Shown here: positions 1 to 22,729 of the stretch, in pieces | Numbering within the stretch: position 1 is the first letter of the stretch | Layout of the letters: every line of letters begins with the position of its first letter | Source: Patescibacteria group bacterium | Lineage (GTDB): Bacteria; Patescibacteriota; Patescibacteriia; 2-01-FULL-39-33 | Length of the DNA stretch: 32,000 bases | NCBI GenBank assembly: GCA_041649575.1 | Contig: JBAZMW010000004.1 | Location: forward strand, 90,001-122,000 | Direction: 5' to 3' | Position numbers and translations under genes: made by a program | Notes under the pieces: model-generated | The model's database searches: none | Seen by the model: only the letters and a program-made list of their open reading frames with translations | What the model was told of the DNA's origin: nothing

Positions 1-93
1 TGGGTTGGCGCCAATCATTCACCGGATGATTGGCGGCGTTCGCCTTCGGCTCACTGCCAACCCGTTCAAATCCCAGCCTTTCTGTCGAAAGGC

Positions 94-130
94 AAATTTT
101 ACTCCCGCTTCGCGGGGTAAAATTTTCCTT
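94..130. terminator. Bidirectional hairpin between the convergent plus-strand tRNA-like fragment and the minus-strand tRNA-Ser
   Basis: AAATTTTAC / GTAAAATTT outer stem enclosing a CCCGC-TTC-GCGGG hairpin, with A/T runs on both sides. Confidence 0.45.
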
Positions 131-217
131 CGGAGAGGGAGGGATTTGAACCCTCGAGACCCTTTCAGGCCTATCGCTTTTCGAGAGCGACCTATTCAAC
201 CACTCTAGCACCTCTCC
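131..217 (-). tRNA. tRNA-Ser(CGA), type II with long variable arm
   Basis: The reverse complement folds as acceptor GGAGAGG/CCTCTCC, anticodon stem TCGCT/AGCGA with loop CTCGAAA (anticodon CGA), variable arm TAGGCCTGAAAGGGTCTC, T-arm GAGGG-TTCAAAT-CCCTC and discriminator G. No CCA is encoded. Confidence 0.9.
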
Positions 218-230
218 ATGTTTGTTATTT

Positions 231-488
231 TTATTTTTCCAATATAACCGTTTTTATTCTTGTCTTTAAGACTCTTCTCCCTTGACCGGTTTTATAAAAT
301 AACTCTTGATTTCTGGCATCTTTCTCATATTTGAAAGCCTCGTAATATATAATCTCTAATGGCCTTCTATTTCTTGTGCTTTCAACTTTTCCGGAAGCGT
401 GTTCCATAAACCTCCTTCTTAAGTCGCTAGTATACCCAATATACAGTTTTTTATCATACTGACTTTTAAGGATATAAACAAAAAACAT
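231..488 (-). CDS. Small GIY-YIG nuclease superfamily protein (UPF0213-like, about 85 aa)
   Basis: Translation is MFFVYILKSQYDKKLYIGYTSDLRRRFMEH...RRPLEIIYYEAF...ARNQELFYK, which shows the GIY...YIG motif followed by conserved R and E residues. I prefer the ATG at 488 over the track's TTG at 509. The stop lies 13 nt upstream of tRNA-Ser. Confidence 0.8.
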   Translation of the reverse strand: MFFVYILKSQYDKKLYIGYTSDLRRRFMEHASGKVESTRNRRPLEIIYYEAFKYEKDARNQELFYKTGQGRRVLKTRIKTVILEK

Positions 489-508
489 TATTATTTTTAG
501 TTTTATCA

Positions 509-596
509 ACTCCGCTCAGCCTGCCCGCTCAAGAATCTGAGCGGGCTGGTGAGCGGACCCGCTCGCTCCGCCGAGCGGGCACTCTAGCACCTATCC
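509..596 (-). repeat. GC-rich multi-hairpin block (509-579) fused to a 17-nt copy of the tRNA-Ser 5' end (580-596)
   Basis: The reverse complement of 580-596, GGATAGGTGCTAGAGTG, matches the first 17 nt of the intact tRNA-Ser (GGAGAGGTGCTAGAGTG) at 16 of 17 positions. The block 509-579 is built from three CCGCTC and three GAGCGG units, for example GCCCGCTCA-AGAATC-TGAGCGGGC. Confidence 0.7.
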
Positions 597-610
597 ACAA
601 CAATTAACCT

Positions 611-1885
611 TTAGCTTTTGACTTCGCTTAGCTTTCTATTTATCACTGCCACGGCCATAATCAACCAGAACAACACTGATAGGTCATTCTTGAAGTATGG
701 CGCATCCACTAGTCCGTGGACGATTATTTCTAGGCCGACAAGCAGTAGAGTCAAATTTAATATTTTATCACCATGTTTGTCAAGCCAATTTTTGAAATTG
801 ACGGCAAAGTATTTGATAAACAGCCAAATAAAACTGATTAGCCCCAAGAGGCCCAGCTCGCTCCAGAAGTTTAGAATGATATTATGGGGATAAAGATAAA
901 TCTCAAAAGTTTTCAAGTGGTAGGGCGCGATTTTCAGCTGGTAGCCGGCCAGGCCGGCGCCCCAGAGCCAGTTGTCTTTTAGCATTTGCCAGCTTTCCTG
1001 CCAAATCAGCCGTCTGATAAATCCCGAATAGTCCTCCAAGGATAATTTGCTGATTAGATAATGATTAAAGGCCTGATTGAAAAAAAAGACAATAAAAAAC
1101 GCCAAAATTACGCCGCCGGTCAGCAGGCGGGTTTTTCTATTAATCAGCCCAAAGATCAGCAAACTTAGGATCACGGCCAGGACAGCTCCCTCGGATTTGG
1201 CCAAAACGATAGTCAGGAAGCCGGCAGCGATAATCAAAGCTTTCAAAAATTGGCTTAAAAAGATTTTTAAGCTGGAGGCACTTACTTCCGCTCCCTGCCA
1301 GAAAAAGCCGACAAACAAAACAATTATCGGCCCCAGGTACAGGCCTAGGGCGTTGGGATAGGCCAAAAGAGAAACCACGCGGTCGACCGAGCCGTCGGGG
1401 TTTAAAAAAGCTTGAGGCACGCCCCAGCCGCTGAACTTCTGCCAAAAGGAAAAAGCGGAAAGATAAAGAACGGAAAGCCCGAGTGACCAGAAGATGTTTT
1501 TTAATTGTCGTTTGTCTTTAACAGTGTTAATTAAAATAATAAAGATGAGCAGCGGCTCTATAAAATAGGCTTTCCAAATACCGGCCGCCTGTCTCAAGGC
1601 GGGTGAGGTAAAGACAGAAATAGTGGCAAAAATAACGATAGCGATTAGCGGCCAAAAAAAAGGATTGGCTCTAAATCCACCGAGCCACCTAAGCCGGTTT
1701 TTCAACAGAAAGACAATAAAGAGAACCAAAATCAGAACTTCCAAAAGCGTAAACGGCAAACCAAAAATCTCCGAACGGATAATAAAGCTGGGCAAAGCGG
1801 CAACGAGCAAACAGGTGGCCAACTCGAAATTTTTGTAAGCCAGCCAGAGAAACAGCAGGCCGCAGATAAGAATAAATAATAACAT
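611..1885 (-). CDS. O-antigen ligase / polymerase-like polytopic membrane protein (Wzy_C-type)
   Basis: The 424-aa ORF is multi-TM throughout and has a C-terminal segment (YPHNIILNFWSELGLLGLISF) typical of the O-antigen ligase domain. Confidence 0.65.
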   Translation of the reverse strand: MLLFILICGLLFLWLAYKNFELATCLLVAALPSFIIRSEIFGLPFTLLEVLILVLFIVFLLKNRLRWLGGFRANPFFWPLIAIVIFATISVFTSPALRQAAGIWKAYFIEPLLIFIILINTVKDKRQLKNIFWSLGLSVLYLSAFSFWQKFSGWGVPQAFLNPDGSVDRVVSLLAYPNALGLYLGPIIVLFVGFFWQGAEVSASSLKIFLSQFLKALIIAAGFLTIVLAKSEGAVLAVILSLLIFGLINRKTRLLTGGVILAFFIVFFFNQAFNHYLISKLSLEDYSGFIRRLIWQESWQMLKDNWLWGAGLAGYQLKIAPYHLKTFEIYLYPHNIILNFWSELGLLGLISFIWLFIKYFAVNFKNWLDKHGDKILNLTLLLVGLEIIVHGLVDAPYFKNDLSVLFWLIMAVAVINRKLSEVKS

Positions 1886-12298: not shown

Positions 12299-12372
12299 GC
12301 GGCGGTAGTTCAGTTGGCTAGAACGTCTCCTTGCCAAGGAGAAGGTCGCCGGTTCGAATCCGGTTCGCCGCT
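12299..12372 (+). tRNA. tRNA-Gly(GCC)
   Basis: Acceptor GCGGCGG/TCGCCGC, D-arm GTTC-AGTTGGCTA-GAAC, anticodon stem TCTCC/GGAGA with loop TTGCCAA, and T-arm GCCGG-TTCGAAT-CCGGT. Confidence 0.9.
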
Positions 12373-12404
12373 CTGGGATAAAAGTAAAAAACAATTTAGT
12401 AATG

Positions 12405-12448
12405 ACGGCTATTCTCGCTTAGGCGACGGCAGAAGCGAGACCAGCCGT
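12405..12448 (+). repeat. GC-rich hairpin module of the same family as the tRNA-fragment inserts
   Basis: ACGGCT...AGCCGT outer stem with CTCGCTT...AAGCGAG inner stem. It shares the GCGAGAC motif with the modules at 12200-12241 and 24473-24504. Confidence 0.55.
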
Positions 12449-12498
12449 AATCGGCGCAGTCGAGCGCAGGCAAATGCGACCTGGGGAGCATTTGACTC

Positions 12499-12535
12499 TG
12501 CCGGGGAACGTCCGGTTCGAATCCGGTTCGCCGCT
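12499..12535 (+). pseudogene. tRNA-Gly 3' fragment (anticodon-loop remnant, variable loop, T-arm and acceptor 3' strand)
   Basis: TGCCGGGGAACGTCCGGTTCGAATCCGGTTCGCCGCT aligns to TGCCAAGGAGAAGGTCGCCGGTTCGAATCCGGTTCGCCGCT of the intact gene. The last 24 nt are identical. No matching 5' half lies adjacent. Confidence 0.65.
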
Positions 12536-12536
12536 C

Positions 12537-13901: not shown

Positions 13902-14083
13902 GGGCGGTTAGCTCAGTTGGTTAGAGCGCCTCGTTTATTTACCCTGTTGAATAGGCACATTTAGCTCAGTTGGTTAGAGCGCCTCGTTTACACCGAGGAG
14001 GTCAGAGGTTCGAATCCTCTAATGTGCAAATAGTCCAACAGGGCGGGTCGAGGAGGTCAGAGGTTCGAATCCTCTACCACCCA
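13902..14083 (+). other. Split tRNA-Val-like gene: 5' half 13902-13937 and 3' half 14049-14083, separated by a 111-nt insert that contains tRNA-Val(UAC)
   Basis: The 5' half is GGGCGGT TA GCTC AGTTGGTTA GAGC G CCTCG TTTA. The 3' half is CGAGG AGGTC AGAGG TTCGAAT CCTCT ACCACCC A. The acceptor pairs at 6 of 7 positions. All other arms are identical to the inner tRNA. Confidence 0.6.
13955..14028 (+). tRNA. tRNA-Val(UAC)
   Basis: Acceptor GCACATT/AATGTGC at 7 of 7, D-arm GCTC-AGTTGGTTA-GAGC, anticodon stem CCTCG/CGAGG with loop TTTACAC, and T-arm AGAGG-TTCGAAT-CCTCT. Confidence 0.9.
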
Positions 14084-14151
14084 ATAGTTAACAGGGCAGG
14101 TTGAGGGGTTGTGCGTATCAGTGTAAACTTTAAACAAGTAAAATAATAAAA

Positions 14152-19602: not shown

Positions 19603-22729
<3,127 letters not shown>

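Follow-up and report, generated by a model that had tools for sequence, protein, structure and literature searches.

The window analysed here is a stretch of 32,000 nucleotides (nt) from a patescibacterial genome (G000:C4:90001-122000; the genome, G000, comprises 0.92 Mb in 5 contigs and is 98% complete), and the subject of this work is a short cassette at positions 218-596, which lies directly upstream of the gene for tRNA-Ser(CGA) and encodes a small nuclease of the GIY-YIG superfamily. The tRNA gene is the sole gene with a CGA anticodon in the genome, and the nuclease gene is the sole open reading frame (ORF) in the insert. Read along the minus strand, from the neighbouring ligase gene through the cassette and the tRNA to the edge of the window, the features of the locus are as follows.

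Positions 611-1885, minus strand: Wzy-type O-antigen ligase gene (Pfam PF04932), the upstream neighbour and synteny anchor.
Between positions 611 and 596, minus strand: 14-nt spacer separating the Wzy gene from the stub, AGGTTAATTGTTGT (sequence reading).
Positions 580-596, minus strand: ancestral 5' end of tRNA-Ser(CGA), nt 1-17, called the stub, GGATAGGTGCTAGAGTG, in which G4 has become T; the ancestral leader is still adjacent.
Positions 558-579, minus strand: hairpin hp1, CCCGCTC-GGCGGAGC-GAGCGGG (fold prediction).
Positions 511-557, minus strand: hairpin hp2, TCCGCTCACC...CTGAGCGGA, with a third hairpin (547-520) nested in its loop (fold prediction).
Positions 506-510, minus strand: GTTGA, a continuation of the stub corresponding to tRNA nt 18-22, after which the tRNA match breaks.
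Positions 489-505, minus strand: AT-rich stretch (sequence reading).
Positions 231-488, minus strand: intact gene for an 85-aa single-domain GIY-YIG nuclease of Slx1/UPF0213 type (Pfam PF01541).
Positions 218-230, minus strand: 13-nt AT-rich spacer from the ORF stop to the tRNA, without resemblance to the ancestral leader (sequence comparison).
Positions 131-217, minus strand: working tRNA-Ser(CGA), with a regenerated 5' end and with no encoded CCA (ARAGORN; Rfam tRNA, 56 bits).
Positions 1-130, minus strand: first 130 nt of a second, 162-nt structured GC-rich insertion on the 3' side, which ends outside the window at G000:C4:89969.

The stub (596-580) is identical at 16 of 17 positions to nt 1-17 of the tRNA (GGAGAGGTGCTAGAGTG, 217-201). 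A match of this type was found in none of 100 dinucleotide-preserving shuffles of the window, and a search of all 920 kb of the genome for near-copies of the 17-mer gave nothing beyond the tRNA and the stub, for which reason a derivation of the stub from another tRNA was dropped. The shortness of the repeat might suggest a chance match, or an artefact of assembly, beside an ordinary small gene; nothing else was found in favour of this explanation, and it is refuted by the shuffles, by the fact that the repeat begins exactly at tRNA nt 1, and by the recurrence of the same architecture in independent assemblies, so that its probability is taken to be close to nil. The hairpin block that follows the stub (579-511, 69 nt) has a predicted folding energy of -57 kcal/mol (z = -5.5), and, with GTTGA resuming the tRNA sequence on its far side, the hairpins appear to break into a 22-nt tRNA stub rather than to trail a 17-nt one; five bases are weak evidence on their own, and a similar layout recurs in other cassettes. 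The first-pass annotation of this DNA had described a minus-strand order of five parts, namely stub, hairpin block, ORF, spacer and tRNA, and all five are present, with the extent of the hairpin block (given there as 579-509, 71 nt) now corrected; the 17-nt stub breaking in the D loop that it described is likewise there, while identity to the tRNA resumes beyond the hairpins and reaches nt 22. Measured from the stub, the insertion is 379 bp long. A group I intron or other self-splicing insert was rejected as a candidate, since no Rfam match beyond tRNA was obtained at E <= 1 with a meaningful score and the downstream tRNA is complete, and a tRNA-gene island mediated by an integrase was rejected because the only ORF is the nuclease and the duplicated part of the tRNA is its 5' end.

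Comparison with related genomes, in which the tRNA sequence was used to query 34 genomes of the same family, provides the ancestral state of the locus. The order Wzy followed by tRNA-Ser(CGA) is kept in 20 related loci (18 from the family search, one in genome G012 and one on the metagenome contig L036), and in 11 genomes (G009, G004, G044, G046, G020, G010, G019, G006, G014, G024 and G002) the Wzy stop codon lies 0-34 nt from an uninterrupted tRNA-Ser(CGA) with no nuclease gene between them. The cassette is thus present in some lineages and absent from relatives, and the empty-site allele whose discovery had been proposed as a check is available in all 11 of these genomes. The tRNA-Ser(CGA) most similar to that of the window is the one in G009 (95%, with nt 1-50 identical), and its leader reads ATGTTAATTGTTGACTGTTAATATT-GGAGAGG. 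The motif GTTAATTGTTG of this leader sits in the window directly 5' of the stub and not of the working tRNA, which indicates that the stub is the ancestral 5' end and that the working 5' end has been regenerated. The earlier proposal of an insertion with regeneration of the 5' part of the target is borne out by these two results, and positions 218-596 are almost certainly a true insertion. The cassette has precise borders and a pattern of presence and absence at one conserved locus, as is expected of a free-standing homing endonuclease gene, and it leaves a functional gene end beside an endonuclease gene with the displaced original end in its old context, which is the arrangement of mobile ORF elements (mORFs; two further loci described below, L038 and G045, also have this arrangement, with a stub that differs from the new tRNA).

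A second scar is found on the 3' side of the gene. The sequence AAATCCCTCCCTCTCCG, which runs from the T loop to the 3' end and comprises the last 17 nt of the tRNA, is repeated 179 nt downstream at G000:C4:89952-89968, outside the window; the displaced 3' end carries CCA, the working tRNA is without it, and a structured element of 162 nt separates the two. The displaced end, ..CTCTCCGCCAATTTTTAC, matches ..CTCTCCGCCAATTTTCAC of G009, which is the end of the tRNA together with its trailer. Because the leader and the trailer of G009 match the flanks of the stub and of the displaced 3' end respectively, these two fragments mark the start and the end of the ancestral gene, and by this comparison two insertions now separate the ancestral gene ends from the working tRNA. 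A search of the hairpin block and the 3' element against Rfam at permissive thresholds returned tRNA matches alone, and readings of these structures as an intron, a ribozyme or a known small RNA were dropped for that reason. The core of the 162-nt element, GGGTTGGCAG-TGAG-hairpin-CGAA-CG-hairpin-CTGCCAACCC-AGGACAG, is repeated in G000 beside tRNA-Gly(UCC), tRNA-Asp (on both sides), tRNA-Ser(GCU), tRNA-Ile(UAU), tRNA-Gly(GCC) and tRNA-Arg(UCU), and the element begins with an inverted copy of the T arm of its cognate tRNA (window 64-82, plus strand).

The same cassette is found at the same site in a second lineage. Among 40 relatives the best homologue of the window protein is at most 53% identical, and in a large collection (5.8 billion proteins) the closest proteins are 64-73% identical; one of these, with 69% amino acid identity, is encoded on the 47-kb contig L036. 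The order on this contig is flippase, Wzy, an insert resembling a miniature inverted-repeat transposable element (MITE), stub, hp1, hp2, GTTGAAA, ORF and tRNA-Ser(CGA). The stub, GGAGAGGTGTCTGAGTG, matches its own tRNA at 17 of 17 positions, hp1 (CCCGCTCAGCAAGCGAGCGGG) differs from that of the window in the loop only, hp2 (TCCGCTCACCCGCAGGGCTGAGCGGA) has a stem identical to that of the window and is missing the nested third hairpin, and the break points are those of the window. The MITE-like insert, an extra segment of approximately 170 nt between Wzy and the stub (L036:2270-2450), has the inverted repeats GTCATCCCGGAC...GTCCGGGATGAC.

The hosts of these two cassettes are far apart, with protein identities of 46% for Wzy and 48% for the flippase. 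On the Wzy tree, L036 is the sister of G017 (support 100/100), in which the Wzy/tRNA site holds no cassette and has only a 90-nt gap with unrelated hairpins, and forcing G000 and L036 together on this tree costs 86 log-likelihood units and is rejected (p-AU, from the approximately unbiased test, 0.0002), a test in which the group was named after the tree had been seen. Between G000 and L036 the identity at third codon positions is 0.45 for the nuclease gene, where 0.29 is expected from composition, and 0.29-0.30 for Wzy and the flippase, where 0.25 is expected, a comparison which favours a cassette younger than its hosts. The stubs, moreover, track the tRNA of their own lineage at three D-arm positions (CTA vs TCT), with GTGCTAGAGTG in G000, G009 and G004 and GTGTCTGAGTG in L036 and many others. 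Taken together, the non-sister hosts, the silent-site identity and the lineage-matched stubs make it the more likely course that related cassettes were acquired twice at this site.

The alternative to two acquisitions is one ancient insertion in an ancestor of the family, inherited vertically and later lost precisely in most lineages by recombination between the 17-nt direct repeats, with the nuclease now a fixed, domesticated host gene. Such repeats would indeed allow the insert to be lost precisely, every one of the eight members of the clade to which the window protein belongs (see below) has an intact, conserved ORF, the closest homologue is just 73% identical, and the cassettes of the window and L036 share their site, break points and hairpins. 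On the Wzy tree, however, this history requires at least five independent precise losses, and it requires a non-functional 17-nt pseudo-fragment to change in step with the tRNA at three positions; it is also at odds with a silent-site identity in the nuclease gene that exceeds that of the flanking genes, and it leaves unexplained both the presence of the same cassette at UGA and GGA isoacceptor genes and the unrelated cassettes that occupy the same site in G012 and G045. Long vertical inheritance is the less favoured history on these sequence comparisons, and is considered very improbable.

The unrelated cassettes are themselves informative. At the Wzy/tRNA-Ser(CGA) site of G012 (L017:1390-1870, on G012:C11) there is a GIY-YIG gene of another clade (44% identical), preceded by a stub of nt 1-37 and accompanied by hairpins that differ from those of the window (CCCGGGGATAAACCCCGGG, CGTCGGGGGTTCATCCCCCGACG). 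In G045 (L218:467-1515, on G045:C18) the Wzy stop is followed by GGAGAGGTGACTGAGTGGTTG, which corresponds with one mismatch to nt 1-21 of the uninterrupted tRNA of its sister G044, in which the site is empty; after this 21-nt stub comes an ORF of 330 aa with a LAGLIDADG_3 domain (E 3.8e-6, above the cut-off), and then a different tRNA-Ser(CGA) with a D arm of the GGA type. The LAGLIDADG family is otherwise known for homing endonucleases or maturases. A single tRNA gene is thus occupied, among the members of one family, by three unrelated endonuclease cassettes, of which two are in the D loop, and this shared occupation is the strongest comparative argument that the niche would be a homing site.

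The relation between nuclease and target was examined in 198 loci gathered from relatives, species genomes and metagenomes, of which the loci with nuclease homologues contributed 173 distinct proteins to a tree. The protein trees are built on 85-90 columns, the groups tested on them were chosen after the data had been seen, and metagenome bins may be mislabelled. The window protein falls in a clade of 8 (support 99 in the Shimodaira-Hasegawa-like approximate likelihood ratio test, SH-aLRT). Seven of the eight members are immediately 5' to a called tRNA-Ser gene (CGA in two cases, UGA in one and GGA in four), and the eighth, L039, lies at a contig end beside a tRNA-Ser-like sequence, so that on the available contigs cassettes of this clade appear to occur only at tRNA-Ser genes. 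The informative point is that one nuclease clade occupies tRNA-Ser genes that are not orthologous. In at least 7 of the 8, hp1 and/or hp2 is found between the tRNA stub and the ORF; hp1 recurs, loop included, in the cassettes L120, L035 and L039, and in L039 its stem reads CTAGCTC/GAGCTAG, compensatory changes which suggest that the structure is under selection. The stub comprises nt 1-17 in L037 (UGA), where it is followed by the hairpins and GTTGA, nt 1-18 in L120 (GGA), followed by the hairpins and GTC, and nt 1-14 in L040 (GGA), followed by the hairpins and GTGG, while in L039 and L038 it comprises nt 1-35 and the break falls in the anticodon loop. The stub of L038 (GGTGAGGTGGCCGAGCGG...) is strongly unlike the working tRNA (GGAAGGTTCGCATAGTGG...), and the old tRNA gene appears there to have been replaced by a different one. 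The D arm GTCGCATAGTGG carried by some cassette-borne tRNAs was considered as the mark of a travelling tRNA and dropped, since it is the normal D arm of tRNA-Ser(GGA) and is present in G000 too.

Other parts of the tree have their own targets. In a clade of 7 (support 98), six members lie 5' of tRNA-Trp and one lies at a contig end, and in a clade of 41 (loci L054-L195) the genes lie mostly 75-100 nt downstream (3') of tRNA-Ser genes with GGA, GCU, UGA or CGA anticodons; some records of this larger clade are labelled as phyla other than the candidate phyla radiation (CPR). On the whole tree the type of tRNA changes 45 times, against at least 69 changes in 300 label shuffles, and the side of the tRNA (5' or 3') changes 30 times, against at least 59 in label shuffles, both figures being descriptive because relatives share labels. 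A tRNA gene lies within 200 nt on the same strand of 84 of the 148 distinct homologues with enough flanking sequence (57%), where approximately 3% would be expected from tRNA density by our own estimate, and the tRNAs within 200 nt of homologues are on the same strand in 90 cases and on the opposite strand in 1.

Within G000 itself there are six GIY-YIG paralogues, three of which have a tRNA gene as their immediate neighbour on the same strand: the window gene, one 5' of tRNA-Glu(UUC) and one between tRNA-Ile(GAU) and tRNA-Phe. The suggestion that GIY-YIG ORFs should be found beside tRNA genes with duplicated fragments accordingly holds both in this genome and among the homologues, many loci having a tRNA fragment bounded by an end of the tRNA. 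The last of the three (G000:C4:46700-47400) has an in-frame TAA, begins right after tRNA-Ile(GAU), and is followed by a tRNA-Ile-like 3' fragment in which a perfect 16-nt palindrome (TCCCGATATATCGGGA) replaces the anticodon arm; a second copy of this palindrome-bearing fragment lies upstream of tRNA-Ile. Two longer paralogues away from tRNAs (C2:91560-91930 and C1:11860-12300) each have inverted repeats on either side, of the GTCATTGCGAG...GCAATC type, with the sequences (T)GTCATTGCGAGC...GCGAAGCAATC / GATTGCTTCGC...GCTCGCAATGACA; these are reminiscent of terminal inverted repeats, or of a long stem around the ORF.

Across the collected loci, the ends of the duplicated fragments fall in a regular pattern. 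In 27 of 33 copies of tRNA 5' parts, identity begins 0-6 nt from nt 1, and in 24 of 28 copies of 3' parts the last identical position is at -3 to +5 relative to the 3' end, while the other ends of many copies appear, by eye from tallies of run length that were not mapped to loops, to fall in or near the D, anticodon or T loops; nine of the 5' copies end at nt 11.

The encoded protein is a convincing member of the GIY-YIG superfamily. It matches Pfam PF01541 with 56.4 bits (cut-off 22.6; E 3.9e-15), and its AlphaFold2 model (mean predicted local distance difference test score, pLDDT, 94.5) has the elements E2-9, E15-20, H23-31, E44-52, H55-65 and H68-83, that is, the three-stranded sheet with flanking helices of the superfamily fold; Y5, Y16, G18, R26, H30, Y48 and E50, among which is the Tyr/Tyr/Arg/His/Glu set, are invariant in 36 homologues. 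A phmmer search of the Protein Data Bank (PDB) returned 1zg2 (5e-7) and 1ywl (3.5e-5), the UPF0213 proteins BH0048 and EF2693, and the NCBIfam model for group I intron endonucleases scored 22 bits against a cut-off of 56. In its single domain and its length the protein belongs with the stand-alone Slx1-like/UPF0213 subgroup (approximately 85-100 aa), and on the strength of the fold and the invariant residues it is probably an active nuclease of Slx1/UPF0213 type.

With regard to expression, a scan for promoters and terminators between Wzy and the ORF returned nothing, and the hairpins were rejected as an intrinsic terminator because they have no T tract. From this result and the shared strand we infer that the nuclease gene would be read through from Wzy together with the tRNA. 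In L036, L037 and L120 a GGAG before the start codon lies within the 3' strand of hp2, and in the window the spacing is longer; by covering this GGAG, hp2 may throttle translation and keep expression low, a form of control that is known for phage homing endonuclease genes.

The reading proposed here, in which about even confidence is placed, is that window 218-596 is an endonuclease cassette that entered the D loop of a resident tRNA-Ser(CGA), rebuilt the gene, and spreads as a free-standing homing endonuclease gene. Its components differ in strength: it is quite probable that the cassette family is or was mobile, and it is a tentative proposition, at best evenly balanced, that its own nuclease drives the mobility. 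On entry of the cassette into the D loop, the tRNA was rebuilt with its first 22 or so nt as a new copy, the old 5' end stayed behind as the stub, and the cell retained its only tRNA-Ser(CGA). To spread, the cassette would use its own nuclease to break a tRNA-Ser gene that is still free of it, and the break would be repaired by copying from a cassette-bearing tRNA-Ser gene, with the halves of the tRNA serving as homology arms: the left end of the break would pair with the stub and the right end with the tRNA, and everything between them would be copied in. Shared break points were considered as evidence for a nuclease cut site and dropped, because under break-repair copying they are inherited from the layout of the donor and are not independent.

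Several observations weigh against this reading. The rebuilt tRNA is the same as the empty allele of G009 over nt 1-50 and only the leader differs, so that there is no obvious immunity, and a nuclease that reads the tRNA body alone would also cut its own host. Five cassettes inserted in the D loop have native-looking sequence in both copies of nt 1-17, the stub and the rebuilt 5' end. A 5' end of donor type would be expected after copying from a foreign source, and the native look of both copies therefore misfits the simplest version of the mechanism; L038 and G045 do carry foreign tRNAs. The protein is a bare catalytic domain without a DNA-binding module, and in this it differs from the phage homing endonuclease SegB, which has an additional DNA-binding part; to our knowledge, every known GIY-YIG homing endonuclease has a separate DNA-binding domain. 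Its nearest folds are likewise UPF0213 and the structure-specific nuclease Slx1 and not I-TevI, the order returned by Foldseek being UPF0213, then Slx1 (query-normalized template modelling score, TM, 0.60-0.66), then the I-TevI catalytic domain (0.39-0.47) and UvrC. The absence of any homologue more than 73% identical gives no sign of recent movement, and the 41-member clade on the 3' side of tRNA-Ser genes is mostly without a detectable tRNA fragment after the ORF, and may represent a more settled form of the association between nuclease and tRNA. Prokaryotic stand-alone GIY-YIG genes of the Slx1-like type are associated with COG4123 methylase genes (PMC1564403), and one Slx1-like GIY-YIG domain is fused to a TrmH-like (tRNA Gm18) methylase (Dunin-Horkawicz et al., PMC1564403). 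This methylase link is a lead that the subgroup is tied in some way to tRNA and does not decide between DNA and RNA as the substrate, but it may hint that these nucleases act on tRNA and not on DNA. COG4123 is now called the tRNA m6A37 methylase TrmN6. Finally, approximately 14 of the 50 tRNAs of G000 have 5' and/or 3' fragment scars, and only 3 have a GIY-YIG gene adjacent.

Many of these points would be accommodated if the cassette were mobile with the GIY-YIG gene as its cargo and not its motor. The breaks and partial duplications in tRNA genes would then be produced by another process, such as mobile hairpin elements, host recombination at tRNA genes or other nucleases, and the carried nuclease, perhaps with a tRNA-related, structure-specific or addictive function, would use tRNA transcription for its expression. 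The excess of scars over nuclease genes, the single Slx1/UPF0213-type domain, the lack of a protective change in the rebuilt tRNA and the methylase link all agree with this explanation, as do the membership of the hairpins in families found away from tRNAs and the better conservation of the nuclease (69% of amino acids) than of its neighbours (46-48%). It explains poorly, however, why nuclease clades follow tRNA type and side, unless homology arms alone guide the hopping, and the LAGLIDADG gene that occupies this site in G045 also counts against it; a homing cycle of invasion, decay and loss, moreover, likewise predicts scars that have no ORF. A cargo role is on balance thought unlikely, with a real share of the probability.

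A further possibility, which is speculative and improbable, is that a bare Slx1-like nuclease finds tRNA genes by their shape. The enzyme would nick one strand at the base of the acceptor stem and its partner strand within a loop, either on tRNA-gene DNA extruded as a cloverleaf or cruciform or on the palindromes of the cassette itself, and the staggered break would be filled in around the cassette; homing guided by structure in this manner would be turning over tRNA genes in many bacterial phyla. Cutting guided by shape would explain the duplications that run from an end to a loop, the native look of both copies, and the colonization of many tRNA genes by an enzyme of 85 aa.

Whatever drives the cassette, it looks like a little-known kind of selfish DNA living in tRNA genes, and it can be compared with several known systems. 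The mORFs of fungal mitochondria, for example in Allomyces atp6, consist of an endonuclease gene that inserts into a host gene and supplies a new gene end. The functional gene end is newly supplied and the displaced original end persists as a pseudo-fragment in both cases, but mORFs replace the 3' ends of protein genes and are read in frame, while the cassette would replace the 5' end of a tRNA, with both copies native-looking in the window clade. Integrase-borne islands and phages also target tRNA genes, which they restore with a copy of the displaced segment between flanking direct repeats; what they restore is the 3' part, and their enzyme is a recombinase of the tyrosine or serine type, whereas the 379-bp cassette restores the 5' part and encodes a nuclease alone. 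SegB of phages T4 and T6 is a free-standing GIY-YIG homing endonuclease in a tRNA gene cluster (PMC2330249; PMC13096335). It resembles the present case as an intron-less GIY-YIG gene among tRNA genes with a patchy distribution among relatives, and its proposed mode of spread is break repair with co-conversion of the tRNA DNA on its flanks, but it is a phage protein encoded between genes, while the cassette encodes a bare 85-aa domain, lies on a bacterial chromosome inside a tRNA gene, leaves a stub and has conserved hairpins.

Two further comparisons concern the protein and the organism. The closest sequences and folds are those of the UPF0213/Slx1-like proteins (PDB 1zg2, 1ywl; PMC1564403) and eukaryotic Slx1, which have a single GIY-YIG domain and the same catalytic residues; Slx1, in contrast, cuts branched DNA and needs Slx4, and no link to tRNA-gene insertion is described for Slx1-like or UPF0213 proteins. 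In the same group of organisms, the rRNA genes of the CPR have insertions with homing endonuclease genes, mostly LAGLIDADG, in a patchy distribution (PMC11270868). These too are endonuclease genes inside highly conserved RNA genes, but there the rRNA gene is interrupted and the insert is removed from the RNA, whereas here the RNA gene is partly duplicated and uninterrupted. None of these nearest known systems unites regeneration of the 5' end within a bacterial tRNA gene, hairpins that are conserved, and a GIY-YIG domain that stands bare, and a literature search on GIY-YIG genes together with tRNA, CPR/Patescibacteria, hairpins and duplication found no description of such cassettes.

If the cassettes are selfish elements, mobile DNA would be able to live in tRNA genes, which are among the most conserved and essential of genes, without ever costing the host the gene, and parasitism of this kind would differ from that of introns, inteins and integrase islands. 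This would account for the abundance of broken and nested copies of tRNAs in ultra-small bacteria, would give the widespread UPF0213/Slx1-like bacterial proteins a first biological context, and could provide a source of very small nucleases with unusual target recognition. The present locus is a clean test case, because a single family offers an empty allele that is defined, another allele that is occupied, and two cassettes of unrelated kinds at the site. It contributes empty alleles in conserved synteny, occupation of the site in a non-sister lineage where the silent sites are younger, a single nuclease clade distributed over three tRNA-Ser isoacceptors, and a LAGLIDADG cassette at this site.

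Some related structures are found elsewhere in the genome. Hairpins of the form CCGCTCAG...CTGAGCGG are dispersed in G000, and those with a stem of hp2 type, CCGCTCA(G)...(C)TGAGCGG, lie mostly far from tRNAs (window 20733-20759, C1:343, C1:165666, C2:7210, C2:170780, C3:190450 and C4:9640); the one at C3:190450 shares the nested loop motif (TCAAGAATCTGA) of the window copy. Two further scars, both without a nuclease gene, lie in the window itself. At positions 12299-12536, the last 25 nt of a tRNA-Gly(GCC) are repeated 163 nt downstream of the gene, and at positions 13902-14110 a tRNA-Val(UAC) is enclosed by two pieces of a second tRNA-Val, one from its 5' part (nt 7-36) and one from its 3' part (nt 40-67).

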